NCBI GenBank assembly: GCA_035601615.1
Contig: DATNNX010000252.1
Coordinates: forward strand, 1 to 48,495
Direction of reading: 5' to 3'
Origin: Xanthobacteraceae bacterium
GTDB taxonomy: Bacteria; Pseudomonadota; Alphaproteobacteria; Rhizobiales; Xanthobacteraceae
Length of the DNA: 48,495 nucleotides
Shown here: one piece after another, positions 6,723 to 37,620 of the stretch
Position numbering within the stretch: position 1 is the stretch's first letter
How the letters are laid out: every line of letters starts with the position of its first letter
Notes under the pieces: model-generated
What the model was told of the DNA's origin: nothing
Seen by the model: the letters and a program-made list of their open reading frames with translations, nothing else
Database searches by the model: none
Made by a program: the position numbers and the translations under genes

Positions 6723-6742
6723 GTTGTGGGAATCGTTCCGTT

Positions 6743-6836: not shown

Positions 6837-6860
6837 CGTGTACTTAAGCGCAGACCGAGA

Positions 6861-7439: not shown

Positions 7440-7712
7440 GGCGCAATCCCCCCTGTGAGGCTTAGACCGCCATCGCGCAACAATATGCCCATTTCAGGGC
7501 GCGCCACGGCAGCGCGTTCGCTTGCGCCACGCAGAGAGACGCGATTCTGTCGCAATACCCGCCATGGTCCGGAAAAATCTCGCGTCTGACAGCGATTCCA
7601 CCGCTTTTGCTTGTCGCGGCGCTGGGCCGCAGGTCATGAACTCCACCGCGCGCCTCGCGGCGAATGCGGAGAGAGTGGTAGATTGCTAGGCAAGCCCAGG
7701 CACTACTTCCCC

Positions 7713-8846: not shown

Positions 8847-9607
8847 TCGAGCCCGTCGTCCAGGCCGTCGATATCGTGAAGTGGCTGGGAAAGGGGGCGG
8901 CGCAGGTGCAAGCTCTCAAGGGTATCAGCTTGGCGCTCCGGGGCGGCGAATTGACGCTGCTGATGGGCCCCTCCGGCAGCGGCAAGACTACGCTTCTCTC
9001 GATCCTCGGATGCATGCTCACGCCGACGCGCGGCACCGTCCGCATGAGGGGCCGTTCGACGGAAGGTGCTGGGCCCGAGGAGCTGGCGAAACTCCGGCGC
9101 GAGCACGTGGGCTTCATCTTCCAGTCCTATCATCTGTTCCCAACCTTGACGGCCACCGACAACGTGCGTTTGGCGCTCGACGTACGCGGGGACAACTCCG
9201 CCCGCGCCATCGCCAAGTCCAAAGACGCCTTGGCGATGGTCGGCCTGGCGGGCAAGGTCAACGCATTTCCGCTCGAGCTCAGCGGCGGCGAGCAACAGCG
9301 CGTCGCCATTGCGCGGGCGATCGTGGGAGAGCCGTCGGCGGTTCTCGCGGACGAGCCCACGGCTTCGCTGGATGGCGAGAACGGCAACGCAATCATGACC
9401 CTCTTGGCCGAGATCGCCAAGGATTCCTCGCGCGGGGTGTTGGTCGTCGCGCACGACCCGCGTATATTGTGCTTTGCTGATCGCGTAGTTCACATCGAGG
9501 ACGGATGCATCATTCGCGAAGAGCGCGGCGATGCCGCGCTCAAGAAAGACCATGGCGAGTGCGCCGCCCATGATCGCGCCGACAAACCTGACCGGATGGA
9601 AAACTAA
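8843..9607 (+). CDS. ABC exporter ATP-binding protein (DevA/LolD/MacB type)
   Basis: Walker A GPSGSGKTT, signature LSGGEQQRVAIARA and Walker B VLADEPT. ATGA coupling to the permease gene. Confidence 0.9.
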   Translation: MIEPVVQAVDIVKWLGKGAAQVQALKGISLALRGGELTLLMGPSGSGKTTLLSILGCMLTPTRGTVRMRGRSTEGAGPEELAKLRREHVGFIFQSYHLFPTLTATDNVRLALDVRGDNSARAIAKSKDALAMVGLAGKVNAFPLELSGGEQQRVAIARAIVGEPSAVLADEPTASLDGENGNAIMTLLAEIAKDSSRGVLVVAHDPRILCFADRVVHIEDGCIIREERGDAALKKDHGECAAHDRADKPDRMEN

Positions 9608-12896: not shown

Positions 12897-14144
12897 ATGA
12901 ATATCCGCGAAACCGCGCCTCGGATTACCGAGCTCGAGAAGATTTCCACGCGTACCGACACCCGCGACTATCTGGCCAAAGCCGCGCCGACCAAGGAGAA
13001 GCTGAAGGACTGGCTCATCGTCGACGTCGATGCCCACGTCAACGAGACTGCGTTCTGGTCGGAAGTCACTGACCGCATCGATAACGAGGTTCTGCGTTAC
13101 ATCGCCGAGGCGTTCCGCGACCGCGGCCCGTTTCCCGGCTTGTTGAACGCCAACGGGCCGCTCTACCAGGACGTGGCCGGCCGCATCATGCACCAGCAGA
13201 AGCTCGCCGAGGCGACGCCGCCCGGACTGCACCGCCAAGTGCAGCTCACCCAACGCGCCATGGACGCGCTCGGCATCGATTACATGGTGGTGTTTCCAAC
13301 CCCGATGCTCTCGCTCGGCATGCACCCGCAGACCGATGCCGAAGTGGCGCTCGGCAATGCGTATAACCGCTGGTTGATCGAGGAGATCCTGCCCCAGGAC
13401 AAGCGCCAGAAGGCGCTGCTCTATCTACCGTTCAACGATCCCGACGCCTGCGTGGAGACGGTCGAGCGTTTCGCCGACGCGCCCGGCGTGGTCGGCTTCT
13501 CCGTCACCTCCACGCGCCACAAGCCGGTTTGGCACAATTCCTATATGCGGCTTTACGCGGCGCTGCAGGAGACGGGCAAGCCGCTCGGCTTCCATGCGGG
13601 CTTCAGCTGGGCCGATCCGTCGTTCCAGCAGCTCAACCGCTTCATCGGCATGCACTCGCTCTCGTTCGTGCACTTCAACATGATCCACATGACCAACTGG
13701 GTGCTCAACGGCCTGCCCGAGCGGTTTCCCAAGCTCAAGGTGATCTGGATCGAGAGCGGGCTTGCTTGGGTTCCTTTCGTCATGCAGCGGCTCGACTCCG
13801 AATACATGATGCGCACCTCGGAGTGCCCGCTGCTCAAGCGCAAGCCGAGCGAGTACATTCAGGAGATGTACTTCACCAGCCAGCCGCTCGAGCGCAGCAA
13901 CATGAAGCTCACCCAAGCCACCTTCGAGGCGATCAGCGCCGACACGCAACTGCTCTACGCTTCGGACTGGCCGCATTGGGATTTCGACGCGCCGAGCTCG
14001 ATCATCAAGCTGCCGTTCCTCAAAGAGGACGCCAAGCGCAACATTCTTGGGCTCAACGCCGCGCGGCTGTTCGGGCTCGAAGTGCCGGCGGCGAAGTCGG
14101 GCGTGAAGGCCTCGCCGCAGCGCGTCGCCGTGCCGGCCGAATGA
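12897..14144 (+). CDS. Amidohydrolase-2 (ACMSD/LigW-type metal-dependent hydrolase/decarboxylase) family protein, paralog 1
   Basis: N-terminal metal motif LIVDVDAHVNE and C-terminal YASDWPHWD, 415 aa. It is clearly paralogous to 24581-25831. Confidence 0.85.
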   Translation: MNIRETAPRITELEKISTRTDTRDYLAKAAPTKEKLKDWLIVDVDAHVNETAFWSEVTDRIDNEVLRYIAEAFRDRGPFPGLLNANGPLYQDVAGRIMHQQKLAEATPPGLHRQVQLTQRAMDALGIDYMVVFPTPMLSLGMHPQTDAEVALGNAYNRWLIEEILPQDKRQKALLYLPFNDPDACVETVERFADAPGVVGFSVTSTRHKPVWHNSYMRLYAALQETGKPLGFHAGFSWADPSFQQLNRFIGMHSLSFVHFNMIHMTNWVLNGLPERFPKLKVIWIESGLAWVPFVMQRLDSEYMMRTSECPLLKRKPSEYIQEMYFTSQPLERSNMKLTQATFEAISADTQLLYASDWPHWDFDAPSSIIKLPFLKEDAKRNILGLNAARLFGLEVPAAKSGVKASPQRVAVPAE

Positions 14145-14175
14145 TGGCCGGGCCAAGCGACTGCGTGGGGTTCGT

Positions 14176-14481
14176 ATGAGTTCATCCGCGGCCACGGATG
14201 CCGGTAGCGAATCCGGTGCGGCGTTCTGCGCATCGGTCGAGGATGCGCTCAAGAACGGCAGGCCGGATGCCGTGCCGGATGAAGCGCTGCAGCGCGTGCT
14301 CTCCGCGGCCGTGCGGCTCTATGCCGCCAAGTCGGAAGACCGCGCGCGAGAGCTTGCGCCATTCGGCGAGCAGCCGGTGAACGCGACCGAGGCGGTGACG
14401 GCGATCTGCGCGATCATGCGCGCGGCCGATCTCAACTTCTTCGATCTGCAAATGTGGTACCGCCGCGGCGAGCGCGAATGA
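14176..14481 (+). CDS. Small conserved hypothetical protein (cassette partner, copy 1)
   Basis: 101 aa with no domain I recognise. It is homologous by eye to 25892-26299 (EALQRVLSAAVRLYAA...ATEAV...AADLNFFDLQMW vs EALQALMAAVCKTYAA...ATEVM...AANLAVFELGMW). It is tightly packed between the amidohydrolase and Rieske genes. Confidence 0.65.
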   Translation: MSSSAATDAGSESGAAFCASVEDALKNGRPDAVPDEALQRVLSAAVRLYAAKSEDRARELAPFGEQPVNATEAVTAICAIMRAADLNFFDLQMWYRRGERE

Positions 14482-14503
14482 TTTACTAGATTCGGGTGAA
14501 GCG

Positions 14504-14878
14504 ATGAACGAGATCATGGTGGGCGAGCTCAGCGAGTTCGCGGAGGGTGGCTACCGCGTGCTGCGGGTCGATAGCTTCGAGTTCGGCATTTTTCGCCAAG
14601 GCGACCGCCTCGTGGCATACGAGAATCATTGCCCCCACGACGGCGGGCCGGTCTGCCAGGGCAAGGTGATCCCGCGCGTCGAGGAAGAGCTCGCGCCGGA
14701 TCAGACCACCCGCGGACTTCGTTTCTCCAAGAAGCGCAACATCGTCTGTCCTTGGCACGGCTGGGAATTCGACATTGAGACCGGCCGCCACTGCGGCGAC
14801 CCGAAATATCGCTTGCGTCCCGTCGACGTGAAGGTGCGTGACAACCGCGTTTATGTCAGCGTCCCGCCGGCAGCCTGA
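14504..14878 (+). CDS. Small Rieske [2Fe-2S] domain protein (124 aa), copy 1
   Basis: Ligand motifs CPH and CPWHG are present. There is no oxygenase catalytic domain. Confidence 0.88.
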   Translation: MNEIMVGELSEFAEGGYRVLRVDSFEFGIFRQGDRLVAYENHCPHDGGPVCQGKVIPRVEEELAPDQTTRGLRFSKKRNIVCPWHGWEFDIETGRHCGDPKYRLRPVDVKVRDNRVYVSVPPAA

Positions 14879-14934
14879 GATCGGCTTCATGCTCGCGACC
14901 GGCCTCATGCCGAGGAGCATCGCGCCGCCGGGCG

Positions 14935-15037
14935 TAGGGTGGGCAAAGGCGCGCTCCGTACCATTACGCGTGGCCAAAATCGCACCGCGCCTTTGCCCGT
15001 GCGGCGACGGTACGCAAAGCGATTTTGCCCACCCTAC
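14935..15037. repeat. REP-like intergenic palindromic element, family A, copy 2
   Basis: GGGTGGGCAAAGGCGCG (14937-14953), GGCCAAAATCGC (14972-14983), CGCGCCTTTGCCCGT (14986-15000) and GCGATTTTGCCCACCCTAC (15019-15037) form interleaved inverted repeats. They share 14-17-nt blocks with 1213-1340. Confidence 0.65.
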
Positions 15038-15049
15038 TGTCGTCCACGC

Positions 15050-16048
15050 ATGACTACGTCCCTGCTTGAGCTGAGCATCGCCCTGTCGGACAACGAGCGC
15101 ACGCGGCCGTTGATCGAAGGCCGCGTCGTTCCGCAAGGAATCAAGCCGGTCGTCACGGTCGTGCATCCCTCCGAGATGTTCTGGCGGCAGCTGCGCTTCG
15201 CCGAATTCGACGTATCGGAAATGTCGATGTCCTCGCTCATCATCGCGACGTCGCGCGGCGATACCCGCTGGGTGGCGATCCCGGTCTTCACCATGCGCAA
15301 GTTCTTCCATACCAGCGTCATCGTGCGCAGGGATTCCGGCATTGCGGCGCCGGCGGACTTGCGCGGCAAGCGCATCGGCGTGCCGGAATATCAGCAGACC
15401 TGGGCGATCTGGTCGCGCGGCGTGCTGCAGGACGAATTCGGCGTGCATGCCCGCGACATCGAATGGTTCATGGAACGCAATCCGGAGAAAAGTCACGGCG
15501 GAGCGACGGGCTTTAACCCGCCGCCGGGCGTGCGGCTGCACCACATCCCCCCCAGCACGAATATCGGCGACATGCTGCTGCGCGGCGAGCTCGACGGGGC
15601 GCTGCTTTATCTCGTCCATCCCAATCTGATCGATCGCAGTACGGTCGATGTGTCGGGGGTGACGCGTCACCTCTTCCCCGATCCCGCGGCCGAAGGCCGG
15701 CGCTTCTACGCCAAGACCGGCTTGTTTCCGATCAACCATACCGTCGTGGTGCGCCGCTCGCTGCTCGAGCGCCATCCCTGGATCGCGCTCAATCTTTATT
15801 CCGCGTTCGTGGGGGCGAAGGAGGAAATCGCGCGCTGCGGCCAATCCCACCTGCAATGGTATTTCGAAACGGGATTGCTCGACGAGAGCGTCAACCGCAC
15901 GCTGGCGGACAACGATCCGCTGGCTTACGGCTTCAAGGCATCCCGCGCCGTGCTCGAAACCATCGCCCAATACGTGCACGAGCAGGGGTTGAGCGTTCGG
16001 CAGGTGAAGCTCGAGGAATTGTTCGCCGCCAGCACGCTCGACATGTGA
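15050..16048 (+). CDS. 4,5-dihydroxyphthalate decarboxylase-like protein (cytoplasmic PBP-fold)
   Basis: No signal peptide. The N-terminus (LSIALSDNERTRPLIEGRVVPQGI...FWRQLRFAEFDVSEMSMSS) matches my recollection of the PhtD-type family. Confidence 0.65.
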   Translation: MTTSLLELSIALSDNERTRPLIEGRVVPQGIKPVVTVVHPSEMFWRQLRFAEFDVSEMSMSSLIIATSRGDTRWVAIPVFTMRKFFHTSVIVRRDSGIAAPADLRGKRIGVPEYQQTWAIWSRGVLQDEFGVHARDIEWFMERNPEKSHGGATGFNPPPGVRLHHIPPSTNIGDMLLRGELDGALLYLVHPNLIDRSTVDVSGVTRHLFPDPAAEGRRFYAKTGLFPINHTVVVRRSLLERHPWIALNLYSAFVGAKEEIARCGQSHLQWYFETGLLDESVNRTLADNDPLAYGFKASRAVLETIAQYVHEQGLSVRQVKLEELFAASTLDM

Positions 16049-16088
16049 TTTGGCCGCGGATGAATCGTCTCATAAACGAGCGGCACGC

Positions 16089-17720
16089 ATGGGCGTGAGC
16101 AAAGGCTACGACTATGTGATCGTCGGCGGCGGCTCGGCCGGCTGCGTGCTGGCCAATCGCCTGAGCGAGGACGGCGCCGGGCGCGTGCTCTTGATCGAAG
16201 CTGGCGGCCGCGACCTCAATCCGCTCATCCATGTCCCGCTCGGTATGGGCAAGATGCACGAATACGACATGTTCAACTGGGGCTATTCCACCGAGCCCGA
16301 GCCGAACATGAACGGCCGCCGGATCGAAGCCATGCGCGGCAAAGTGCTGGGCGGATCGTCCTCGATCAATGTGATGGCCTATACGCGCGGCCATCGCGGC
16401 GACTATGACCGCTGGGCGCAGAAAGGCGCGCGCGGCTGGTCCTATGCCGACGTGCTGCCCTACTTCAAGCGCTGCGAGCGGTGGGAAGCCAGCGAGGATC
16501 GTTGGCGCGGCGGCGCGGGGCCGGTCGGCACGGAATTCGCCAGAACGGCCGACCCGCTCTACGACGCGTGGATCCAAGCGGCGCTCGCGGCCGGCTTCCC
16601 CGTGACCGACGACTATAACGGCAAGCAGCAGGAAGGTTTTGGCCGCGGCCAATACACCATCCGCGACGGATACCGCTCCTCGGCCGCAAGCGCCTATCTC
16701 AGGCCGGCGCGCAAGCGACCAAATCTCGAGGTTGCGACACGGGCGCATGCGACCCGCGTGCTGATGCGAGGGACCCGCGCGAGCGGTGTCGAATACCGCA
16801 AAGGTGGCCGCCTGGTGAGGGCCGAAGCCGAGCGGGAGGTGATCCTCTCGGCTGGCGCGTTCAACACGCCACCGCTGCTCATGCTGTCAGGAATCGGTCC
16901 GGCCGCGCATCTGCGCGAAATGGGCATCGAGCCGGTGATCGATTTGCCGGTCGGCAAGAACCTGCAGGATCACCTCGCGGTCATCGTCTTCTTCCGGCGC
17001 TTGGACGAAAGCACGTTCATCAAGCAGATGCGGTTCGACCGTATGGCGGTCAGCATGATCCGTGCCTACCTCTTCGGCACCGGCCCCGGTACGGTGGTGC
17101 CCGGCGGCTTGCACGCCTTCGTCAAGACGCGGCCGGAGTTTGCGGTGCCGGACATCGAGTTCATGTTCCGCGGCGCGCCGGCGGCGCCGCATTTGTGGTT
17201 TCCACTCATCCGCGCGGCCTATCTCGACGGCTACGGCATCCGCCCCACGCTCTTGCATCCCGACAGCCGCGGCGAAATCCTGCTGCGCTCGGCCGATCCG
17301 CGCGAGCCGCCGCGCATCGTCTACAAGTTCTTCTCCGCGCCGGACGACCTCCCCCGCCTGCGCGAAGGGTTCAAGCGCGCCCGCGATGTCGCCTATCAGA
17401 AGCCGATGATGCCCTATCGCGGCGCCGAGACCGCGCCCGGCGACAAGGTCAAGAGCGATGCTGAGATCGACGCCTGGATCAGGAATACTGCGATCACCGC
17501 GCATCATCCCTGCGGCACCTGTGCCATGGGAATGGGACCCAACACGGTCACCGACCCGCAGCTGCGGGTGCGTGGGATCGAGCACCTGCGCGTCGTCGAC
17601 GCCTCCGTCATGCCCGATCTCATCTCGGCGCACATCAATGCTTGCGTGCTGATGATTGCCGAGAAGGCGGCCGACCTGATCCGCAATAAGCCAGCGCTGC
17701 CGGCCGACTATGACGCATAG
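16089..17720 (+). CDS. GMC-family FAD oxidoreductase (choline/alcohol dehydrogenase-like)
   Basis: FAD fingerprint YDYVIVGGGSAGCVLANRLSED, GMC signature region and a C-terminal catalytic His region (HHPCGTCAMG). Confidence 0.9.
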   Translation: MGVSKGYDYVIVGGGSAGCVLANRLSEDGAGRVLLIEAGGRDLNPLIHVPLGMGKMHEYDMFNWGYSTEPEPNMNGRRIEAMRGKVLGGSSSINVMAYTRGHRGDYDRWAQKGARGWSYADVLPYFKRCERWEASEDRWRGGAGPVGTEFARTADPLYDAWIQAALAAGFPVTDDYNGKQQEGFGRGQYTIRDGYRSSAASAYLRPARKRPNLEVATRAHATRVLMRGTRASGVEYRKGGRLVRAEAEREVILSAGAFNTPPLLMLSGIGPAAHLREMGIEPVIDLPVGKNLQDHLAVIVFFRRLDESTFIKQMRFDRMAVSMIRAYLFGTGPGTVVPGGLHAFVKTRPEFAVPDIEFMFRGAPAAPHLWFPLIRAAYLDGYGIRPTLLHPDSRGEILLRSADPREPPRIVYKFFSAPDDLPRLREGFKRARDVAYQKPMMPYRGAETAPGDKVKSDAEIDAWIRNTAITAHHPCGTCAMGMGPNTVTDPQLRVRGIEHLRVVDASVMPDLISAHINACVLMIAEKAADLIRNKPALPADYDA

Positions 17721-17972
17721 AGAACGAGGCTCCGTGCATTCTCGCTCGAAGCACGCTAGCGCCTTCTCGGGGCTCTGCGGGATCGTTATCGTTAAGTCGG
17801 ATGCAACCCATGCTTGCGCTCCGGAACGACGTTTCTTGCAGGCTGTTAACGCCGTCTATACGGCGCCCAAGGCTTTGCCCCGTGCCGCCGCGAGGATAGT
17901 ATTCACGCAAGCGTTCGCGTCAGCCGACATAGACCGCACGCCACCGCGGCCGACGATTGAGGGAGAAACGTT

Positions 17973-19937
17973 ATGGCGAAAAAACATCTGCCGGTGAGCC
18001 GGCGCAAGTTCCTGGCGGGAGTGGCAGTGGCAGGTGCGGCGTCCGCGGTGCCGCCGGCGCAAGCTGCGACCACGGCCTCTGCGAGCGCTGCGCCCAGACG
18101 GCCCTCCGCGCTGCCGCCCACGGCGCATGTGGCGGCGGCGGAAAGCGGAACCCCGAACGAATTGTCGACATCGCGCATCGGCGGCACTCCCGGCTCCGAT
18201 TTCATGGTCGACGTTATCAAGACGCTCGATATCAAATATGCGCCGTCGAACTGCGCTTCCAGTTACCGGGGCATTCATGAATCCTTGATCAATTACGGCG
18301 GCAACAAGATGCCGGAGTTCCTCACTTGCACGCATGAGGAATCCGGGGTCGGCATGGCGCATGGCTACTTCAAGGCCGCCGGCAAGCCGCTGATGACGTT
18401 CTGCCACGGGACGGTCGGGCTGCAGCACGCGACGATGGCCGTCTACAACGCGTGGTGCGACCGCGTGCCCGTGATCATCGTCGGCGGCAACGATCTCGAC
18501 GCCGCACATCGGCCGCCGGGCGTGCCGACCATCCATTCCGCGCAGGACATCAACGCGTTGGTGCGCGACTTCACCAAGTGGGACGACACGCCTGTTTCGC
18601 TCCAGCATTTCGCGCAATCCTTCGTGCGCGCATACAAGATCGCGATGACGCCGCCCTACGGTCCGGTCGCCATCTCGCTCGATGCTGGCTTGCAGCAAGA
18701 GGCCATGCGCGACCATGGCGAGAAACTCTATATCCCGCGTTACGTTCCGAGCTCGCCGCCGCAGGGCGATTCGGGCGCCGTGAAAGAGGCGGCGCGGCTG
18801 CTTGCCAACGCGCAGAACCCGGTGATCGTCGTGGATCGCGCTGCCCGAGGTGAGAATGGCATTCGACTCCTGGTCGAATTGGCCGAGTTGCTGCAGGCGC
18901 AGGTAGTCGATCAGGGCAGTCGAATGAACTTCCCCAAGACCCACTATCTCGGCCGCCCGCCTACCGCCGTGAACAATGGCGATGTCATCATCGGCCTGGA
19001 GGTGACCGACTTCTGGGGCACGGTGAATGCCTGGATCGACAATGGTGAACGCGGCATCGGCATCAATACGAGCAGGATCAAGCCCGAAACCAAGCTGATC
19101 AGCATCAGCTCCTCCGAACTTCTGACCAAGGCGAATTACCAGGATTTCCAGCGGTTCCAGTCCGTCGACGTATCGATGCCTGCGGACGCCGAAGCGACCT
19201 TGCCTGCGCTGGTCGAGGCGGTGAAGGCGGCAACCCCCACTGATCGCAAAGCTGCGATCGACAAACGCGGCGAGGCGGCGAAGAAAGCTTATGCCGAGCA
19301 GCGCGTGCGCACAAAGCAGGCCGCGGCCCTCGCCTGGGATGCAAGCCCGGTCAGCACCGCTCGTCTCACCATGGAGACGTGGGCGCACATCAAAGATCTC
19401 GATTGGTCCCTGGTCGCCTCTTCAGGCGACATGAGCAATTGGCCGCAGAGGCTCTGGCCGATGGAAAGATACTACCATTGGCTTGGGAGATCGGGCGGCT
19501 CTGGCGAGGGATACGGCGCGCCCGCGTCCATCGGCGCGGCGCTCGCCAATCGCGATCTCGGCCGTTTTTCCGTGAGCATTCAGGCCGACGGCGACCTCAT
19601 GTATGCGCCGGGCGTGCTGTGGACCGCGGCGCGGCACAAAATCCCGCTGCTCGCGGTGATGCACAACAACCGCGGCTATCACCGAGAAGTCATGCACCTC
19701 CAGCGCCTCTCGAATTTCCGCAATCGTGTGGCAAGCCTCGGCGGCGACTTGGGTCCGATCGGCACCCGCATCGAAAATCCCGACATCGAATATCACAAGC
19801 TCGCGGAGTCCATGGGCTGGTGGGCGAAAGGTCCGATCAACGATCCGGCGCAGCTCGGGCCGGCGCTTAAGGAAGCGGTCGCGGTGGTGAAATCGGGACA
19901 GCCCGCGCTCCTCAATGTGTGGACGCAGCCGCGTTAG
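17973..19937 (+). CDS. Tat-exported thiamine-diphosphate-dependent enzyme
   Basis: Twin-arginine signal MAKKHLPVSRRKFLAGVAVAGAASAVPPAQA. Catalytic-Glu region THEESGVGMAHGY and TPP motif ADGDLMYAPGVLWTAARHKIPLLAVMHNNRGY. RBS GAGGGAG lies upstream. Confidence 0.85.
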   Translation: MAKKHLPVSRRKFLAGVAVAGAASAVPPAQAATTASASAAPRRPSALPPTAHVAAAESGTPNELSTSRIGGTPGSDFMVDVIKTLDIKYAPSNCASSYRGIHESLINYGGNKMPEFLTCTHEESGVGMAHGYFKAAGKPLMTFCHGTVGLQHATMAVYNAWCDRVPVIIVGGNDLDAAHRPPGVPTIHSAQDINALVRDFTKWDDTPVSLQHFAQSFVRAYKIAMTPPYGPVAISLDAGLQQEAMRDHGEKLYIPRYVPSSPPQGDSGAVKEAARLLANAQNPVIVVDRAARGENGIRLLVELAELLQAQVVDQGSRMNFPKTHYLGRPPTAVNNGDVIIGLEVTDFWGTVNAWIDNGERGIGINTSRIKPETKLISISSSELLTKANYQDFQRFQSVDVSMPADAEATLPALVEAVKAATPTDRKAAIDKRGEAAKKAYAEQRVRTKQAAALAWDASPVSTARLTMETWAHIKDLDWSLVASSGDMSNWPQRLWPMERYYHWLGRSGGSGEGYGAPASIGAALANRDLGRFSVSIQADGDLMYAPGVLWTAARHKIPLLAVMHNNRGYHREVMHLQRLSNFRNRVASLGGDLGPIGTRIENPDIEYHKLAESMGWWAKGPINDPAQLGPALKEAVAVVKSGQPALLNVWTQPR

Positions 19938-19948
19938 GAGACCCCCCG

Positions 19949-20296
19949 ATGCGCATGCTTCACGTATTCGGGCCGGTGGCGTTTGCCGCCGGCCTACTCT
20001 TGACCTGCGGTGGCGCGTACGCGGCCTCGGCCGAGAAGGGCAAGGCGGCCTACCTGCAGCACGGCTGCTGGCAATGTCACGGCACGCAAGGTCAAGGCGC
20101 CGTCACCGGCCCCAAGCTCGCGCCGGACCCCATGCCGATCGAGACATTCACGGCTTTCGTGCGCACCAGCAATCGCGCCATGCCGCCGTACTCCGAGGCC
20201 ATCTTGTCGAACGACGACCTCGCGGACATTCACGCTTATCTGGAGACGATTCCGAAGCCGGCGGATTACAAGAGCATTCCGTTGCTCAACCAGTAG
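19949..20296 (+). CDS. Monoheme c-type cytochrome (class I), exported
   Basis: Signal peptide, haem motif CWQCH and a distal Met region (NRAMPPY). AGGAG RBS. It starts 11 nt after the TPP enzyme stop. Confidence 0.85.
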   Translation: MRMLHVFGPVAFAAGLLLTCGGAYAASAEKGKAAYLQHGCWQCHGTQGQGAVTGPKLAPDPMPIETFTAFVRTSNRAMPPYSEAILSNDDLADIHAYLETIPKPADYKSIPLLNQ

Positions 20297-20318
20297 CATC
20301 GAATCCAGCTCATGTAAT

Positions 20319-20390
20319 GGTCGTCCCCGCGCAACGGGGACCCATATCCCAGACTCGGTGGTTATGGGTCCTCGCATTCGCGAGGACGAC
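20319..20390. repeat. Composite palindromic repeat / bidirectional terminator-like hairpins (family C)
   Basis: Hairpin 1 is GTCCCCG-cgcaa-CGGGGAC (20323-20341). Hairpin 2 is GTCCTCGC-attc-GCGAGGAC (20368-20387). The two arms are imperfect reverse complements of each other. The element lies between convergent genes. Confidence 0.6.
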
Positions 20391-20393
20391 AGC

Positions 20394-21320
20394 TTACAAA
20401 TCCAGCACCAGCCGCTCGCTCTTGCAGCCGGCGCAGCAGATCATGACCTTGGTGTTGGAGGCCTGCTCCTCCTCGGTGAGGATGGCGTCGTGGTGCTCGG
20501 GGACCCCGGAGATCACCCGCTGCTCGCACGCGCCGCAGATGCCGAGTTCGCAGGAATAGTCGACGTCGACGCCGGCATCCAGCAGCACCTGCAGGATGCT
20601 CTTGCCCTCGGGGATGACGAATTCCTGTCCCGAGCGCGCGAGTTCGACCACGAACCCGCCCTTCTTGTCGGCCCCTTGCTTGGGCGTGAAATATTCGACG
20701 TGGATCTGCGCGCGCGGCCAATCCGCGGTCGCCGCCTCGAATGCCTTGAGCATCGGGGTGGGTCCGCAGCAATAGAGGTGTGCCTCACGTGGCGCCTCGG
20801 TGACGATCGAGTTGACGTCGAGGACTTTGCCGCAGTGCTCGTCGTCGAAATGGAAGTGCGTATGGCCGATCGCTTCGAGCGCTTGCAAGAAGGCCATGTC
20901 GGCGCGCGAGCGACAGGCATAGTAGAGCTGCCAGGAGCGTCCGAGCTTGTGCAAGCGCTGCACCATGCACCAGATCGGGGTGATGCCGATGCCGCCGGCC
21001 AGGAGCACGACATGGCCGGCGTCCTCCCCCAGCGGGAAATTGTTGCGCGGCGCGCTGATCTTGAGCGTCCTGCCGACGCGCAGCTCGTCGTGCACACAGC
21101 GCGAGCCGCCGCGGCTTGCCGGATCGCGCTTGACGGTGACGGTGTAGCTTAAAGGATCGGGCTCCGGCTCGATCAACGAGTACTGACGGATGAGCCCATT
21201 CGGCAAGTGCAGGTCGATATGGGCGCCGGGGTCATAGGGCGGCAACGGCTTTCCGTCCACTGGCGCAAACTCATAGGCGTTTGTGTCGCGCGCCGCGTAG
21301 CGGATCGCGCTCACACGCAT
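20394..21320 (-). CDS. PDR/VanB-family oxidoreductase (FMN/NAD-binding domains plus C-terminal plant-type [2Fe-2S])
   Basis: RQYSL flavin motif, GGIGITP NAD motif and a C-terminal CELGICGACE cluster. I take the start at ATG 21320 (MRVSAIRY, 308 aa). The longer GTG 21449 start is possible. Confidence 0.85.
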   Translation of the reverse strand: MRVSAIRYAARDTNAYEFAPVDGKPLPPYDPGAHIDLHLPNGLIRQYSLIEPEPDPLSYTVTVKRDPASRGGSRCVHDELRVGRTLKISAPRNNFPLGEDAGHVVLLAGGIGITPIWCMVQRLHKLGRSWQLYYACRSRADMAFLQALEAIGHTHFHFDDEHCGKVLDVNSIVTEAPREAHLYCCGPTPMLKAFEAATADWPRAQIHVEYFTPKQGADKKGGFVVELARSGQEFVIPEGKSILQVLLDAGVDVDYSCELGICGACEQRVISGVPEHHDAILTEEEQASNTKVMICCAGCKSERLVLDL

Positions 21321-21604
21321 CTCGATGAGGCCACCCGCCGTGTGTGCCGGCCTCGCCTCGCCCGCTGCGGCCGTCGTTCTATTCACCGATGTGTCTCCCG
21401 CGGCAGCGCCAGCCTCATCGGGCACCGAAGCTCGTTTGTCAATTATCACACCTCAGATATGCTTGCTTCGCGCGCAATCCAACGCGCAGAGAATCGAGTG
21501 GATGCGCGGCGCCGCCCCCGCGCGCTCGAGCACGGCTTCCTCGCGGCGAGGCAAGAGCTGAGCGAAAATGTGACGGGACCCGCCCAGCCCCAAGAGAGAA
21601 GAAA

Positions 21605-22651
21605 TTGAAAGGCTCTCCCAAAGCCATATCCCTCCGAGTTCTGGCGCTTTCTCTGTCGCTCGTTCCGGTTCTTAGAGCCGGACCGGCTGGCGCGCAGGCG
21701 CCGCCCTCTTGGCTCGACCCGGCCTTGCTCACGGCGGCGAAAGCGGAAGGCTCGCTGATCGTCTATTCCTCGACCAACGAGCAAGAGGGTCTGCCGTTGT
21801 TCAAACTGTTCACCGAGGCGACCGGCATCGCGGTCGAATATGTGCGCGCATCGGACGCGGTGCTGATGTCGCGCATGGGAATCGAGTTTCGTGCCGGGCA
21901 GCGGTCCTACGATATCGTGCAGACCGCGACCATCAACAAGATGCCGCCGCAGATGCTGGCGCAATACGAGCCGCCCGAGGCGACCAACATCTCTTCGCAG
22001 GCGCGAGATCCGGGCAAACGCTGGTGGGGCGTTTATGCCAATTACAATTCGCCGGCTTACAACACCGAACGCGTGAAAGCCTCCGAGCTGCCACGCGGCT
22101 ACGAGGAGTTTGCGCAGCGCAAGGAGTGGGCTGGCAAGGTCGCAATCGACGGCACCGACAACGAATGGCTCAAGGCGATGATCGAGCATTTCGGTGAGGG
22201 CGAGGGCGCCGAGCTCGTCAAACGCATCGTGGCAACGCTGCGGCCCGTCGTCACCGACGGCCACCTCGCCATGGCGCGAGCGACCGGCGCTGGCGAATAT
22301 TGGGTGTCGCTGAACAATTACGTGAACCTGTCGATGAACGTCAAACTTGGTGGCGCCCCGATCGACGTCTGGCCTCTCGACCCGGTCACGCTGTTCTTCG
22401 GACAGGTCGGGGTGAATGCGAGGGCGCCGCATCCGAGCGCGGCCCGCCTTGCCGCCAATTTCATGCTCAGCCGCGAATGCCAAGCGTTTCTCGCCAAGTT
22501 TGGACGATTGCCGACGCGTCAGGACGTGCAGTCGAACCCGCCGGGTGTCATCGCGGCGCTGACCCAGAAGAAAGTCATCACCGTGCTGATGAGCCCCGAC
22601 GAGGAGCGCAAATGGCAGCGGCGTTTCGATCAGCTGTTCAAGGGGCGGTGA
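21605..22651 (+). CDS. ABC transporter periplasmic substrate-binding protein (family 1, Fe(III)/polyamine-like)
   Basis: Signal peptide KGSPKAISLRVLALSLSLVPVLRAGPAGAQA, then LIVYSSTNEQE. There is no in-frame ATG before the signal peptide, so I infer a TTG start at 21605 after a purine-rich stretch. Confidence 0.75.
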   Translation: MKGSPKAISLRVLALSLSLVPVLRAGPAGAQAPPSWLDPALLTAAKAEGSLIVYSSTNEQEGLPLFKLFTEATGIAVEYVRASDAVLMSRMGIEFRAGQRSYDIVQTATINKMPPQMLAQYEPPEATNISSQARDPGKRWWGVYANYNSPAYNTERVKASELPRGYEEFAQRKEWAGKVAIDGTDNEWLKAMIEHFGEGEGAELVKRIVATLRPVVTDGHLAMARATGAGEYWVSLNNYVNLSMNVKLGGAPIDVWPLDPVTLFFGQVGVNARAPHPSAARLAANFMLSRECQAFLAKFGRLPTRQDVQSNPPGVIAALTQKKVITVLMSPDEERKWQRRFDQLFKGR

Positions 22652-22703
22652 GTTTTTCTTCTCCTTACCTCGTCTTGCCTCTCCCCGCCTGCCGGGAGCG
22701 CAT

Positions 22704-22727
22704 CCTCTCCCCGCAAGCGGGGAGAGG
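22704..22727. repeat. GC-rich perfect hairpin (CCTCTCCCCGC-aa-GCGGGGAGAGG) within a short repeat-like spacer
   Basis: An 11-bp perfect inverted repeat. A second CTCTCCCCGC half-site lies about 25 nt upstream. The hairpin sits between the SBP and permease genes. Confidence 0.55.
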
Positions 22728-22745
22728 GAGATCGGAGCGTGCTGT

Positions 22746-24512
22746 TTGAGTATTGCCAACGGCCGTCTAGACGATCTACCCGGCGTAGCGGCTGTCGGCC
22801 GCTTGGCTGCTGTCGCGAGCCTGCCAAACCTCATGCTCGTCGGGTGCGTTGTCGTCGTGGTTTGGCTCGTTTTCGTTCCGCTCTCGGCGCTCCTCTACAA
22901 CGCCTTCACTGAGGATACCGGATTCGGGCCGGGCGGCTTGTCGCTCGATAATTTTGTCGAGGCTTATTCGAGTTGGCACATTCCGGGACTGCTCTGGAAT
23001 TCCGTGGTCTTTGCGCTCGGCACGGCCCTGGCGACATTCGTGATGGGCGCGCTCGTCGCCTGGGTTGTCGAGCGCACCGACGCGCCGGGCGGAAGCCTGT
23101 TTCACGTCATGTCGCTGCTGTCTTTCGCGGTGCCCGGATTATTGATGGCGATGGCCTGGATCTTCGTCCTCAGCCCGAACATCGGCTGGGGCAACGCGGC
23201 CCTCAAAACGGCCTTCGGGCTGAGCGAAGCGCCGCTCAATATCTATTCGATGACCGGCATGATTTGGGCGCTGGCAAGCCACTATTTTCCGCTCGCTTAT
23301 CTCATGCTGGGGCCGGCCTTGCGCGCGCTCGACCTGCGCATGGAGGAGGCCGCGCTCATGGCCGGCGCAAGTTACCTGCAAGTCTTCATCAAGGTCACGC
23401 TGCCGTTGCTGCGGCCCGCGATTCTTTCCGCGCTGCTGCTGCTGTTCGTGATGGGCATGGCCTCCTACGAGGTCCCGCGCCTCATCGGCCGGCCGGCGCG
23501 CATCGACGTGTTTACCACAGACATCCAGGGCGCCATCATCGCCGCGCCGCCGGCTTTCGGAGTGGCAAGCGCGCTTGGCCTCGCGCTGCTCGCGATCTGC
23601 GTGCTTGCCGTATTCTTCTATCGTCGCGTCACCCAGCACGCGGAAGCTTTCGCCACTATAACCGGTAAAGGGTACCGGCCGGCGCGTATCAAGCTCGGGC
23701 GCGCCCGCTGGCCCATCGCGCTGGGGGTCGGCGCGATGTTCGTCTTCGCGCTCGGCCTGCCGCTCGTCACGCTCCTTTGGCAGTCCTTCTTCCGCAATCT
23801 GGCGCAGCCGTTCGTCTTCACAGCCGCGCGGGCGACGCTCGAGAACTACGAGTTCATCCTGAGCTATCCGATATTTCTCGCGGCGGTGAAAACGAGCGTG
23901 CTGCTCGCGGCAATGGCCGCGACTATCGTTGCCGGCCTCACCTTCGTCATGGCCTGGATCGCGCAGCGGTCGCTGCCGCGCTACGCCCTCATCCTCGACG
24001 TGCTCGCCTTTGCGCCGATCGCCATACCGGGGGTCATTGTCGGCGCCGGAATCCTCATCGCCTATCTCATGCTGCCGATTCCCATCTACAACACGATCTG
24101 GATCCTGCTGGTTGCCTATGTGACGTTGTATCTTCCCTACGGGATGCGGTTTGCGTCGAGCGGGATCGCGCAAATTCATCGCGAGCTCGAGGAGATGGCG
24201 GCGGTCTCGGGTGCCGGGCTCGCCCAGACTTTCACGCGCATCTTGCTCCCGCTTCTCGCGCCGGTGCTGCTGGCAGGCTGGATCTACGTCTTCGTGCTGG
24301 CGGTGCGCGAGCTCGGCGCGTCGATCTTCTTGGTCGGCCCCGGCACGCACGTGCTGGGCACCATCAGTTTGACGATGTGGGAGGAGGGCGGCAGCTATGG
24401 CGCGGTCGCGGCGCTAGGTGTGATTCAGATCGTTCCCCTCGTCGTGATCGTCGCAGGACTACGATCGATCGAGCTGCGCATCCAGCGGCGCGCGCAAGTA
24501 CAGTCATCGTAG
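22746..24512 (+). CDS. Fused two-domain ABC transporter permease (FbpB/iron(III)-type)
   Basis: About 12 TM segments and two binding-protein-dependent permease modules (EAALMAGASYLQVFIKVTLPLLRPA and EMAAVSGAGLAQTFTRILLPLLAPV). The start is uncertain (TTG 22746, TTG 22803 or ATG 22833). Confidence 0.85.
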   Translation: MSIANGRLDDLPGVAAVGRLAAVASLPNLMLVGCVVVVVWLVFVPLSALLYNAFTEDTGFGPGGLSLDNFVEAYSSWHIPGLLWNSVVFALGTALATFVMGALVAWVVERTDAPGGSLFHVMSLLSFAVPGLLMAMAWIFVLSPNIGWGNAALKTAFGLSEAPLNIYSMTGMIWALASHYFPLAYLMLGPALRALDLRMEEAALMAGASYLQVFIKVTLPLLRPAILSALLLLFVMGMASYEVPRLIGRPARIDVFTTDIQGAIIAAPPAFGVASALGLALLAICVLAVFFYRRVTQHAEAFATITGKGYRPARIKLGRARWPIALGVGAMFVFALGLPLVTLLWQSFFRNLAQPFVFTAARATLENYEFILSYPIFLAAVKTSVLLAAMAATIVAGLTFVMAWIAQRSLPRYALILDVLAFAPIAIPGVIVGAGILIAYLMLPIPIYNTIWILLVAYVTLYLPYGMRFASSGIAQIHRELEEMAAVSGAGLAQTFTRILLPLLAPVLLAGWIYVFVLAVRELGASIFLVGPGTHVLGTISLTMWEEGGSYGAVAALGVIQIVPLVVIVAGLRSIELRIQRRAQVQSS

Positions 24513-24580
24513 CGCCAAGCGCGGGTCCGCCCTATTCGGTCGCCGACCGAGTTCGCGCGCGCCGGCCGCTACTCCGATGG

Positions 24581-25831
24581 CTAAGCCGCGGCGGCGAGAT
24601 TGCCGAAGCGCTTCAGGTTCTCCCGCTGCTTTTCATTGCGCGGCGGCAGCTTGAACAGCCGCGCGGCGGTGCCGCCGAGAATGTTGTGCTTGCCCTTCTC
24701 CGAGAGGAACGGCAAGTCGTAGATCGTGGCCGGCAGGTCGAAGTCCCAGTGCGGATAATCCGACGAGTAGAGGAGCTGCGTCTCGGCGTTGATCATGCGG
24801 AACGTGCATTCCAGCGCCTGGCGGTCCTGGATCTCGATCGGCTGCGAGGAATAGTACATGTCGCGCATATAGTCGGACGGCTTCTTCTTGAGGAGCGGTG
24901 CCTCCGACGGGCGCATCATGAATTCGTGATCGAGCCGCTGCATCAAGAACGGAACCCAAGCGAGCCCGGATTCGATCCAGATCACCGGCAGTTTGGGGAA
25001 GCGCTCGCCCATGCCGTTGATCACCCAATTGGTGCAGTGAAGGATGTTGTAGAAGGTGAAGCCGAGCGCGTGCACCGACAGGAAGCGGTTGCAGGCGCGG
25101 AACACCGGCTCGTTCCAGTTCGGCCCGGAGTGGAATGCGAGCGCGAGCCCGCGCTCCTCCAGCATGCGGTAGAGCCGCATATAGGCGTTATCGTTGACTT
25201 GCAGGTGGCGCACCGTCGTGACCATGAAGCCGGTCACGTGCTTGCGGCTGCCGAAGGTCTCGACCTGGCGCACGCAGGCGGCTGGATCAGAGAACGGCAG
25301 GCACAGCATGGAATACATGCGCCCGTCCGCCTCGGGCAGCACCTTCTCGGTGACCCAGCGGTTGTAGGCCCAGCAGAGGTCCGCCTCCATCTCCTTCTGC
25401 GGATGCATGCCGATGTTGAGCATGCCGGTCGGGAACAGGCAGGAGTAGTCCACGCTCATCGCATCCATCCAGCGCTCGCCGAGCTGCACGTCGCGATGCT
25501 TGCCGTTTTGCTCCGTCTTCTCGGAGCGCCGCAGCGGATAGCGGGTCACGCGCCCGCCCATGTCCTGGATGAAGCCCGCGTTGGTCGGCACGACCGAGCC
25601 GCGATCGGTCAGGCCGCGGCCGCCCATGGTCCACTGCCGGAACACGTCGTTTTCCATGTAGGGCAGGATGTCGCTGTAGTGCTCGTTTTCGTAGTGGTGC
25701 GCGTCCACATCGACGATGAGAATATCGTCGAGCTTGCGCCGCACCGCCTGCTTGCGGGCGTGGGCGAGAAGTCTGCTGGTGTTCAACTCATCGACAGAGA
25801 CGCGTCGACCGCGTTCAGCGAGGAGGTCCAT
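24581..25831 (-). CDS. Amidohydrolase-2 family protein, paralog 2
   Basis: LIVDVDAHHYE and YSSDYPHWD motifs, 416 aa. AGGAGA RBS. Collinear similarity to 12897-14144. Confidence 0.85.
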   Translation of the reverse strand: MDLLAERGRRVSVDELNTSRLLAHARKQAVRRKLDDILIVDVDAHHYENEHYSDILPYMENDVFRQWTMGGRGLTDRGSVVPTNAGFIQDMGGRVTRYPLRRSEKTEQNGKHRDVQLGERWMDAMSVDYSCLFPTGMLNIGMHPQKEMEADLCWAYNRWVTEKVLPEADGRMYSMLCLPFSDPAACVRQVETFGSRKHVTGFMVTTVRHLQVNDNAYMRLYRMLEERGLALAFHSGPNWNEPVFRACNRFLSVHALGFTFYNILHCTNWVINGMGERFPKLPVIWIESGLAWVPFLMQRLDHEFMMRPSEAPLLKKKPSDYMRDMYYSSQPIEIQDRQALECTFRMINAETQLLYSSDYPHWDFDLPATIYDLPFLSEKGKHNILGGTAARLFKLPPRNEKQRENLKRFGNLAAAA

Positions 25832-25891: not shown

Positions 25892-26299
25892 CTAACGGCC
25901 GGTCCAGCTCTGCCACATGCCGAGTTCGAATACGGCGAGATTGGCAGCCTTGAGCAGCCCGCTCGCGGTGATCATGACTTCGGTGGCGGTGGCGCCGCCA
26001 CGCTGCGGAAGCGGCAGCACCTCATCGCCCGCCTCGACTTGTGCCGCGTAGGTCTTACACACGGCGGCCATGAGCGCCTGCAGCGCCTCGGTGCTCAGTG
26101 CATCGCGCCGGCCGCTGGCAAGCGCCCGCTCGAGCTCGGCGGCAAGCCGCTTCGCCTGTCCGGAGCCGGCACCGTTCGCGGTTTCACCCGCCGGTTTTGG
26201 TTCTCGCTCGACCGACTTGGCGCCTCTGGTGCGCTTTGCGGCCGGCCGCGCCGTCACTGCCGCGCGCCGCGCGGCCTTTGCCGCCCTAGGTGAGGACAT
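25892..26299 (-). CDS. Small conserved hypothetical protein (cassette partner, copy 2) with a basic Ala/Lys/Arg-rich N-terminal extension
   Basis: The C-terminal 80 aa are homologous to 14176-14481. ATG 26299 overlaps the Rieske gene 3' end by 14 nt. An alternative GTG lies at 26257. Confidence 0.6.
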   Translation of the reverse strand: MSSPRAAKAARRAAVTARPAAKRTRGAKSVEREPKPAGETANGAGSGQAKRLAAELERALASGRRDALSTEALQALMAAVCKTYAAQVEAGDEVLPLPQRGGATATEVMITASGLLKAANLAVFELGMWQSWTGR

Positions 26300-28938: not shown

Positions 28939-29715
28939 CTAAGGGCGCACCGCCGGCGTTTCGACCGGCATGCCGCGCGCGCGCCACATCAGGTAAAGCT
29001 CGAGATCGACAAGTTCGCTCGCTCCGTAGGGATAAGAGACCGCGCGCATGCCGAACAGACAGTTGCGCAGCCGCCGCTGCAGCGATCCGAGCGTTTGCCA
29101 CTCGAGGCGATAGAGCGGATATCCGGTCGGATGGCCCTGCGGGATCGCCGCGCCGGCAAGCTTTTGGCCCCAATTGTCGTCGTGGCACTGCGCGCAGGCG
29201 AGATTGAGCTGGCCTTGGCGCTCTATGAACATCGCGCGGCCGGCTTCCAGAAAAGGCCTTATCCGCGCGTCATCCGCGATGTCGATCGGCATGCCGCGCG
29301 ATTGCTCCCCGATATAGGCTGTGAGCGCCAGCAGCTCCTTGCTTTCGAAGGCAAGCGGGGTCGCGCGCTGCTGTTGAGTGCGGCACATATTGATCCGCTG
29401 TTCGAGATCGACCGGGCGGCCGCGCACCGCGTTGAATGCGGGATAGCGCGCCGCCACGCCTTTCATGCTCGTGCCCGCGTCGCCGTGGCAGTCCGCGCAT
29501 GATTTGCCGGCAGAACCCTCCTTACGCTGCCAGAGGGTCTCGCCGTCGAGCACCCACAACGTGGCGGGATTGGCGCTATCGTCGTCCTGCATCGCGCGTG
29601 TCTCTCGCGCCATGAAGTCGTAACCCGACTTGCGCTCCGAAAACGGAATGTCCGCCGCAGCCGCCGCAGCGCCCAAGGCGGCAAGCATGAAAACAGCAGC
29701 GGCCGCCCGCGTCAT
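28939..29715 (-). CDS. soxA: Dihaem cytochrome c SoxA
   Basis: Signal peptide, two haem motifs (CADCH and CAQCH) and the conserved GYPLYRLEWQTLGSLQRRLRNC region. ATGA overlap with soxZ. Confidence 0.9.
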   Translation of the reverse strand: MTRAAAAVFMLAALGAAAAAADIPFSERKSGYDFMARETRAMQDDDSANPATLWVLDGETLWQRKEGSAGKSCADCHGDAGTSMKGVAARYPAFNAVRGRPVDLEQRINMCRTQQQRATPLAFESKELLALTAYIGEQSRGMPIDIADDARIRPFLEAGRAMFIERQGQLNLACAQCHDDNWGQKLAGAAIPQGHPTGYPLYRLEWQTLGSLQRRLRNCLFGMRAVSYPYGASELVDLELYLMWRARGMPVETPAVRP

Positions 29716-30032
29716 TCGACCGTGATATTGACGGACTCGGCCGCCGTAAAGCCGTTGTCGCCGGTCCATTCGAAGCTCAGCGTGCCGCTTTCGCCGGCAA
29801 CGGTGAAAAAGGTCAGAAACGGATTGGCGGCGATAGCCGGGAACAGCTCGGCGCGGAAAATTTCCTCTCCATTATATTTGCAGGTGAATTCGGTGATGAT
29901 GTCGCGCGGCACCGGCTTCCCGGTACTGTCAGGGCGAAAGCCGGTCTCCATGACATGCGAGATCAGCGTCTTGATCTCGATCACTTCGCCGCGCTTGGCC
30001 TTCGCCGGCGCATTGATGAGGGCGCGCGCCAT
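29712..30032 (-). CDS. soxZ: Sulfur-carrier complex subunit SoxZ
   Basis: 106 aa. KRGEVIEIKTLISHVMETGFRPDSTGKPVPRDII matches my recollection of SoxZ closely. Confidence 0.88.
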   Translation of the reverse strand: MARALINAPAKAKRGEVIEIKTLISHVMETGFRPDSTGKPVPRDIITEFTCKYNGEEIFRAELFPAIAANPFLTFFTVAGESGTLSFEWTGDNGFTAAESVNITVE

Positions 30033-30034
30033 GC

Positions 30035-30523: not shown

Positions 30524-30528
30524 GGTGC

Positions 30529-32254: not shown

Positions 32255-32270
32255 GATCGGCCTCCATTCC

Positions 32271-32576: not shown

Positions 32577-32620
32577 GCCGGGGGCTCCCGATGCGAAGGG
32601 GTGCCGATTGCGCCCGCTCG

Positions 32621-35416: not shown

Positions 35417-35425
35417 TCGTTCTCG

Positions 35426-37606: not shown

Positions 37607-37620
37607 GGCTGCCTCCCCGC

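Follow-up and report, generated by a model that had tools for sequence, protein, structure and literature searches.

Gene organization of the locus

The window, that is, the whole 48.5-kb stretch of DNA analysed here (64.6% G+C; contig DATNNX010000252.1 of a Xanthobacteraceae bacterium, assembly GCA_035601615.1), contains a pair of adjacent genes that would encode an exported thiamine diphosphate (ThDP)-dependent enzyme and its own c-type cytochrome (Table 1). The 654-residue, three-domain ThDP enzyme that had been proposed in a sequence-only reading of this DNA agrees with the open reading frame (ORF), with Pfam and with the AlphaFold fold. TPP_enzyme_N (PF02776; 55.7 bits, residues 74-173) and TPP_enzyme_C (PF02775; 74.2 bits, residues 484-649) score above their gathering scores, TPP_enzyme_M (PF00205) lies marginally below its own (29.9 bits vs a cut-off of 30.4), and full-length homologs of 650-670 residues number in the hundreds. 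The catalytic Glu region claimed in the same reading is present (E122, within THEES), and so is the Mg/diphosphate motif, but the literal GDG is not, as the first Gly is replaced by Ala and the motif reads A-D539-G-D ... N565-N566. The second gene had been described as an exported monohaem cytochrome 11 nt downstream with an AGGAG ribosome-binding site (RBS) of its own, which the coordinates bear out. Its product shows the features of a class I cytochrome c, namely a signal peptide, one CxxCH motif, a distal Met and about 90 mature residues, and matches both Cytochrome_CBB3 (PF13442, 47.4 bits) and Cytochrom_C (PF00034, 39.3 bits) above their cut-offs.

Table 1. Positions of the ThDP-cytochrome c gene pair and of other features in the window.
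Feature	Position	Strand	Details
RBS GAGGGAG of ThDP gene	17959-17965	+	7 nt ahead of ATG; read from sequence
ThDP gene, stop included	17973-19937	+	ATG start, 654-aa precursor; ORF and translation, Pfam
Predicted twin-arginine signal peptide, residues 1-31	17973-18065	+	S-R10-R11-K-F-L, h-region, A-Q-A / A32
Mature N-terminal linker, residues 32-70	18066-18182	+	Predicted disordered, with conserved motifs
Pyr (N-terminal) ThDP domain core	18192-18491	+	PF02776; holds S96, E122 (18336-18338), H145
Divergent middle domain	18780-19208	+	PF00205 marginal; loop PVIVVDRAAR after first strand, without Gly-rich loop
PP (C-terminal) ThDP domain	19422-19919	+	PF02775; Mg motif D539-G-D ... N565-N566 (19587-19670)
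AGGAG RBS of cytochrome gene	19936-19940	+	Overlaps TAG stop (19935-19937) of ThDP gene
Monohaem class I cytochrome c gene	19949-20296	+	115 aa; ATG at 19949, 11-nt gap after ThDP stop
Sec signal of cytochrome, residues 1-25	19949-20023	+	Ends ...GGAYA / AS
Haem motif C40WQCH44	20066-20080	+	Cytochrome translation
Met78 of cytochrome (M78PPY)	20180-20182	+	Translation
Conserved C-terminal tail IPLLNQ of cytochrome	20276-20293	+	Consensus of 82 neighbour cytochromes
GC-rich nested hairpin	20313-20398		Between cytochrome and convergent reductase genes, gap 97 nt (20297-20398)
Amidohydrolase-2 paralog, 415 aa	12897-14144	+	
Small alanine-rich ORF	14176-14481	+	After the preceding amidohydrolase
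Amidohydrolase-2 paralog, 415 aa	24581-25831	-	
Small alanine-rich ORF	25892-26299	-	After the preceding amidohydrolase
SoxA/TsdA-type cytochrome c	28939-29769	-	
Flavocytochrome-c sulfide dehydrogenase flavoprotein	30989-32254	-	
Two large MoCoBD_1/2 molybdopterin-binding-domain proteins	32621-34981, 35426-38008	-	

The twin-arginine leader of the ThDP enzyme

The ThDP protein begins with MAKKHLPVS-RR-KFLAGVAVAGAASAVPPAQA, followed by a predicted cleavage position before ATT, and thus shows a basic n-region, a twin arginine in S-R-R-x-F-L context, 29 uncharged residues after RRK as an h-region and an AxA site (A29-Q-A31). The twin-arginine start SRRKFLAG...AQA named in the sequence-only reading could be read directly in the translation, and the S9-R-R-K-F-L-A leader carries the motif features of substrates of twin-arginine translocation (Tat), that is, S/T-R-R-x-F-L, h-region and AxA.

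Eighty genome loci at 69-88% identity were obtained from Xanthobacteraceae, Beijerinckiaceae, Burkholderiales (including Comamonadaceae) and Steroidobacteraceae, covering Alpha-, Beta- and Gammaproteobacteria. RRxFL occurs in 77 of their 78 complete N-termini, in the pattern [SDNGA]-RR-x-F-[LIM] followed by an uncharged stretch, and the residues flanking the motif vary freely; the exceptions among the 80 loci are one that is truncated (L063) and one that is frame-shifted (L060). Because RRxFL and the hydrophobic stretch behind it are kept at the protein level while their surroundings vary, the RR region is read as translated, with no start downstream of it, a possibility that the sequence-only reading had left standing.

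Among 1.84 billion cluster representatives that were searched, the RR leader was found in every full-length one at or above about 43-44% identity, and RR is invariant in the alignment of the signal-clade representatives down to about 44% identity, whereas the representatives at 31-39% identity (560-617 residues) all begin directly at the Pyr domain without a signal. In the maximum-likelihood tree of 79 sequences, the signal-bearing proteins form a single clade with an approximate likelihood-ratio (SH-aLRT) support of 100 and a branch length of 0.4, and the 57 sister representatives lack a signal, so the N-terminal extension is conserved in orthologs and confined to one clade. From this conservation and the single-clade tree, the sequence comparisons indicate that the leader is translated, is under selection and was gained once, and export of the ThDP enzyme to the periplasm is what such a leader predicts. 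Further clade members recovered by profile search are labelled by their sources as Acidobacteria, Vicinamibacterales and Bryobacteraceae, and one member bears the NCBI title 'twin-arginine translocation signal domain-containing protein'. Of 12 same-genus genomes sampled, 11 have TatC, as do all 8 of the other relatives. One representative (P0301) had appeared to be a clade member without a signal and was rejected as such, the motif being found once its mis-called start codon was corrected.

Pairing with an adjacent cytochrome c gene

The conservation of the cytochrome neighbour, which the sequence-only reading had put forward for checking, extends through both close and distant homologs. Of the 79 close loci with room for one, 78 have a homologous monohaem cytochrome c gene immediately downstream, and a cytochrome adjoins the ThDP gene at all ten more distant loci (L081-L085 and L091-L094, with L091 holding two tandem modules), so that the pair is kept together in 88/89 loci. 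The distant set comprises three contigs at 49-51% identity to the window ThDP protein, four further subgroups, and plasmids of Caballeronia zhejiangensis, Novosphingobium sp. KACC 22771 and Burkholderia sp. SFA1, in the last of which the cytochrome is dihaem. The gap between the two genes has a median of about 11 nt over 82 loci, and in several pairs the genes overlap by 1 or 4 nt. A consensus of sAEKGK..GCWQCHG..GQGG..MPPY..DLADI.AYL runs through the cytochromes, as does a C-terminal tail IPLLN(Q) that persists in distant members. Taken together, the arrangement of RR motif and cytochrome neighbour is far beyond chance. CcmF and CcmC, of the cytochrome c maturation (Ccm) system, are present in the source metagenome-assembled genome (MAG).

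A natural fusion of the two proteins was also sought; the only over-long match (P0004, 767 residues) was discarded as an internal duplication or assembly chimera without CxxCH.

Enzyme family, fold and active site

By sequence, profile and fold, the closest solved structures are benzoylformate decarboxylases (BFDC; 4q9d, 1bfd, 6qsi), benzaldehyde lyase (BAL)/formolase and 2-hydroxyacyl-CoA lyases, with acetolactate synthases (ALS) and glyoxylate carboligase ranking behind the BFDC/BAL group, and the identity to these closest relatives is only about 20%. Profile searches against the Protein Data Bank (PDB) gave E-values of 1e-40 to 1e-33 for BFDC, 1e-28 for BAL and 1e-27 for ALS, and Foldseek matched BFDC/BAL at E about 1e-32 with TM-scores of 0.76-0.81, normalised to the target. 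The AlphaFold model (mean confidence, pLDDT, 80; predicted TM-score, pTM, 0.82) adopts the standard three-domain fold from residue 67 on and matches more than 500 PDB chains of the ThDP-decarboxylase fold at E <= 0.001, and residues 1-66 are modelled as disordered (pLDDT <50). The disordered mature N-terminus nonetheless carries the conserved motifs R-x-PSALPP and AAAE(T/S)G-P, with a nearly invariant E57, and these linker motifs, together with the IPLLN tail of the cytochrome, may be docking elements.

The best-scoring curated NCBIfam model, NF006203 (PRK08327), titled 'thiamine pyrophosphate-requiring protein', reaches 200.9 bits over residues 75-650 vs a cut-off of 456; other clade members score 208-236 bits on it and the signal-less sisters 235-293 bits, also below the cut-off. 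The NCBIfam BFDC model NF005485 (EC 4.1.1.7) gives 150.8 bits vs a cut-off of 493. Because the best models fall so far below their cut-offs, the ThDP protein is, by these family models, outside every named family.

HMMER alignments place S96, E122 and H145 opposite BFDC Ser26, Glu47 and His70. E122, D539 and N565/N566 are invariant, as are D539-G-D ... N565-N566 in 72 sequences, the residues H121, E122, E123 and H145, and, in the alignments of representatives, Y569, H570, E572 and M574 after the Mg motif. In BFDC, Ser26 and His70 contact the 2-oxoacid substrate, and because their equivalents S96 and H145 are kept, the likely substrate tilts toward a 2-oxoacid. BFDC His281, to which protonation of the enamine is usually assigned, has no His counterpart after realignment of the BFDC match, in a poorly aligned region that reads E343-x-x-D346-x-W348, and this would fit an enzyme that does not protonate its enamine.

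When searched alone against PDB sequences, the middle domain found its best match, at E = 0.018, in the flavin adenine dinucleotide (FAD) enzyme cyclohexane-1,2-dione hydrolase (CDH). The AGGG loop of CDH aligns with VDRA in the ThDP enzyme, where the clade consensus is ADRxAR, and the domain is very divergent. The VDRA loop and the ranking of relatives together suggest that the enzyme is probably flavin-free.

Distribution and paralogs

A scan of one genome per species found a relative in at least 576 species. An ortholog at E <= 1e-140 occurred in none of 300 genomes sampled evenly from the same order, and the module is present in 49 of 60 other species of the window's own, largely uncultured soil genus of Xanthobacteraceae (17 of 20 high-quality genomes). 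Such genomes frequently have 2-3 copies, among them a second type with about 50% identity. Outside the genus it occurs in Burkholderiales, Steroidobacteraceae, Sphingomonadales and lineages labelled Acidobacteria, and also on conjugative or mobilisable plasmids, with Caballeronia, Burkholderia sp. SFA1 and Novosphingobium as cultured carriers. This patchy distribution, plasmids included, fits a putative mobile cassette.

The source genome also encodes two signal-less ThDP paralogs at 35-36% identity (contigs C106 and C143; L087 and L088), neither of which has a cytochrome neighbour. One of them is preceded by two cupin-like ORFs.

Gene neighbourhood and probable transcript end

A third conserved gene, for instance one for a chaperone or for an enzyme that supplies the substrate, was sought by clustering the neighbouring ORFs and by tallying Pfam domains in the 126 nearest neighbours, and none was found. 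With heuristic gene calls in the related loci, both approaches revealed only lineage-specific synteny (luciferase-like monooxygenase 13, EAL regulator 12, TctC 6). Since no other neighbour is conserved, the ThDP and cytochrome genes form, on these gene calls, a self-contained two-gene module.

In the window, the ThDP gene follows an upstream gap of 252 nt. Genes for an amidohydrolase-2, a Rieske protein, a binding-protein-like ORF and a glucose-methanol-choline (GMC) oxidoreductase lie upstream of the pair and a convergent ferredoxin-NAD reductase gene lies downstream, all without signal peptides. The GMC oxidoreductase, Rieske protein, amidohydrolases, binding protein and ferredoxin reductase were considered as further parts of the system and rejected, being devoid of signal peptides and found in 2-7 of the 80 related loci.

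The hairpin behind the cytochrome gene folds at -48 kcal/mol (z = -5.4), a value that 0/200 shuffles reached. The two-gene transcript probably ends at this long structure, which could act as a bidirectional terminator or represent a repetitive extragenic palindromic (REP)-like repeat. It has no T run and was not called by the consensus terminator scan, and the scan for promoters and terminators was uninformative.

Tannase-family esterases occur in 2 of 8 distant loci, an extradiol-dioxygenase-like vicinal oxygen chelate (VOC) protein lies within 6 kb of the module in 16 of the 80 loci, a signal-bearing amidohydrolase-2 precedes it in nine Burkholderiales loci, and a pyrroloquinoline quinone (PQQ) sugar dehydrogenase and a PL22-like protein were each seen once. 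These hints of context are weak and inconsistent, and at most suggest a loose link to the breakdown of plant-derived aromatic compounds or sugar acids. On the metagenomic contig L091, the two ThDP-cytochrome c modules stand in tandem (4604-9300) beside a tannase-family esterase, and in the L093 subgroup a tannase-family gene and an alpha/beta hydrolase gene are directly upstream. At nine Burkholderiales loci, including L013 and L039, a signal-bearing amidohydrolase-2 lies directly upstream with a gap of about 65 nt and may be a lineage-specific third component. Its gene is on the same strand as the ThDP gene in 7/9 of these loci; the L013 protein begins MTSRREFVAGAG, and the L039 leader is of KRGFLTG type.

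Two amidohydrolase-2 paralogs flank the module in the window, each followed by a small alanine-rich ORF, and the flanks (12897-17720 and 20394-25831) also hold the small Rieske protein, the GMC oxidoreductase and the Fer2/NAD-binding reductase. These sets resemble a catabolic unit that was duplicated, perhaps one for aromatic compounds, and by conservation they are unrelated to the ThDP pair. A further gene group for periplasmic, cytochrome-linked oxidation lies on the reverse strand at 28939-38008 (Table 1).

Proposed mechanism and alternative explanations

We favour, at a probability of roughly 0.6, the reading that the ThDP protein is a ThDP-dependent dehydrogenase of the periplasm, which would probably oxidise and decarboxylate 2-oxoacids and would reduce its own cytochrome c; within this reading, decarboxylating 2-oxoacid oxidation would take about half of the weight. 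Enzymes with this ThDP fold are obligate dimers and bind the cofactor between their subunits. The enzyme would fold, dimerise and load ThDP and Mg2+ in the cytoplasm and be exported folded via Tat, a route that would be needed because the cofactor sits at the dimer interface and would be unavailable outside the cell. The class I cytochrome c would be exported by Sec, with haem attached in the periplasm via Ccm. The periplasmic enzyme would then form a C2-alpha carbanion/enamine on ThDP, most likely by decarboxylation of a 2-oxoacid, or, less likely, by addition of an aldehyde or by cleavage of a 1,2-dicarbonyl or an acyloin. Instead of BFDC-type protonation, the enamine would give up two electrons, one at a time, to the dedicated cytochrome c. 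As the enzyme is probably flavin-free, electrons could pass from the ThDP intermediate to haem either directly or via aromatic side chains. Hydrolysis of the acyl-ThDP would release the carboxylic acid, and the reduced cytochrome would feed the aerobic respiratory chain. Enamine oxidation has precedents, through FAD in the pyruvate oxidases POX/PoxB, through iron-sulfur (Fe-S) clusters in pyruvate:ferredoxin oxidoreductase (PFOR), and with artificial dyes; haem as the acceptor would be novel.

Several observations weigh against this reading. A ThDP enzyme that hands electrons to haem with neither flavin nor Fe-S cluster in between is not known. ThDP is normally buried deep in the dimer interface, which could put it beyond the reach of a docked haem, and the flavin-free assignment rests on sequence resemblance and on one loop of a very divergent middle domain. 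The Pfam TAT_signal model gives the ThDP protein 17.1 bits, below its cut-off of 22.7, and neither TatC nor TatA was found in the source MAG (3.16 Mb, 297 contigs, 70% complete). Among the close loci with room for it, only L069 is without the cytochrome, and the genome of L069 has another copy of the module (L064) that includes one; at L094 the cytochrome lies on the opposite strand. Furthermore, the gene neighbourhood, as tallied over the 126 nearest neighbours, yields no substrate for the enzyme.

The alternative that survives best, which we regard as unlikely, has the exported enzyme work non-oxidatively, as a BFDC- or BAL-like decarboxylase, lyase or carboligase in the periplasm, with the cytochrome serving some other step, for example as acceptor for a second periplasmic dehydrogenase that acts on an aldehyde product. 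That the closest solved relatives are both non-oxidative, that BFDC S26 and H70 have conserved counterparts and that there is no obvious flavin site would all suit such an enzyme. The exclusive pairing is hard to square with it, however, as the cytochrome is the only conserved partner in 88/89 loci, neither an aldehyde dehydrogenase nor any further redox enzyme accompanies the pair, and a lone cytochrome c without a dehydrogenase partner would be roleless; the position of BFDC His281, with E343-x-x-D346-x-W348 and no His counterpart, would also speak for oxidation rather than protonation.

Slightly less probable again is a flavin or other cofactor hidden in the divergent middle domain, which would make the protein a PoxB-like flavo-ThDP dehydrogenase reducing cytochrome c. 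In favour of this, FAD is the electron conduit of every known ThDP oxidase with this fold, the FAD enzyme CDH is the middle domain's best hit, if a weak one, and Tat export would suit any cofactor-loaded protein; yet the Gly-rich AGGG loop of CDH is replaced by VDRA (clade consensus ADRxAR), flavin-free BFDC and BAL outscore ALS and CDH in both sequence and profile searches, and the list of the 25 top NCBIfam matches contains no PoxB/POX model. A hidden flavin would change only the wiring, so that the claim of a periplasmic, cytochrome c-reducing ThDP dehydrogenase would stand. That the RR region is no working export signal, acting as an uncleaved membrane anchor or a cytoplasmic extension with the cytochrome adjacency due to co-regulation only, is very improbable: the sub-threshold TAT_signal score and the failure to find Tat genes in a 70%-complete MAG would allow it, but the RR pair never varies in a clade that crosses phylum boundaries, the leader has the typical n-region, h-region and AxA site, NCBI names one member for its Tat signal, extension and cytochrome neighbour are both absent from the sister clade, and TatC is found in nearly all sampled same-genus genomes.

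If the favoured periplasmic dehydrogenase is real, ThDP would join the cofactors of periplasmic respiratory dehydrogenases, which now comprise molybdenum (Mo), flavin, PQQ and haem, and nature would use ThDP-to-haem electron transfer without flavin or Fe-S cluster. It would also mean that ThDP can cross the membrane inside a folded protein, and that abundant uncultured soil bacteria could harvest electrons from small carbonyls, such as 2-oxoacids, aldehydes and dicarbonyls, without taking them up. The small size of two genes and the plasmid-borne copies in cultured Caballeronia, Burkholderia and Novosphingobium make the hypothesis directly testable.

Comparison with known systems

To our knowledge, ThDP enzymes of this fold are, by textbook, cytoplasmic catalysts. 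Neither an exported ThDP enzyme nor a ThDP-cytochrome c system was found in the full-text literature, with most subscription journals outside the scope of that search, and NCBIfam likewise held no characterised example, in line with the sequence-only reading, whose author knew of none. Two articles taken up as possible precedents (PMC3305326 and PMC6662401) were set aside, their content being unrelated. It is conceivable, at slightly less than even odds, that the module represents the first case of an exported ThDP enzyme and founds a flavin-free class of respiratory dehydrogenase with direct oxidation by cytochrome c, in which a Tat signal would have been added once to a cytoplasmic BFDC-like ancestor.

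BFDC (MdlC, EC 4.1.1.7; 1bfd, 4q9d, 6qsi) and BAL (2ag0, 2uz1), which are cytoplasmic and non-oxidative, have the same three-domain fold and are the best sequence matches. The window enzyme has in common with BFDC the catalytic Glu, the Mg motif and the Ser26 and His70 equivalents, and is probably flavin-free like it, whereas the Tat signal, the conserved 40-residue linker, the obligate cytochrome c neighbour and the lack of His at the His281 position set it apart from BFDC and BAL. Nearer in sequence are the NF006203 family and the signal-less sister clade at 31-39% identity; the sisters share the HEE and GLQH motifs with the window enzyme but have neither signal peptide nor cytochrome neighbour.

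In POX/PoxB and PFOR, the hydroxyethyl-ThDP enamine is oxidised instead of protonated and its electrons go to a respiratory or redox carrier, and it is this enamine oxidation chemistry that the present proposal resembles. POX/PoxB use FAD and are cytoplasmic or on the inner membrane face, and PFOR uses Fe-S clusters in a different fold. Unlike these enzymes, the window protein shows no recognisable flavin loop and no Fe-S motif, would be located in the periplasm, and has a c-type cytochrome as its proposed acceptor.

Periplasmic dehydrogenases with a dedicated cytochrome c are known from SorAB sulfite dehydrogenase, PchCF p-cresol methylhydroxylase, NicA2-CycN and the PQQ alcohol dehydrogenases with cytochrome c550/cL. 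They follow the same genetic logic, in which an exported, cofactor-loaded dehydrogenase is encoded beside a small soluble cytochrome c that delivers the electrons to the oxidase, but their cofactor is Mo, flavin or PQQ and never ThDP, and they have no sequence relationship to the window pair. The parts, namely the ThDP fold, the Tat signal and the periplasmic dehydrogenase with its cytochrome c, are each known from other systems, and their combination is unprecedented.

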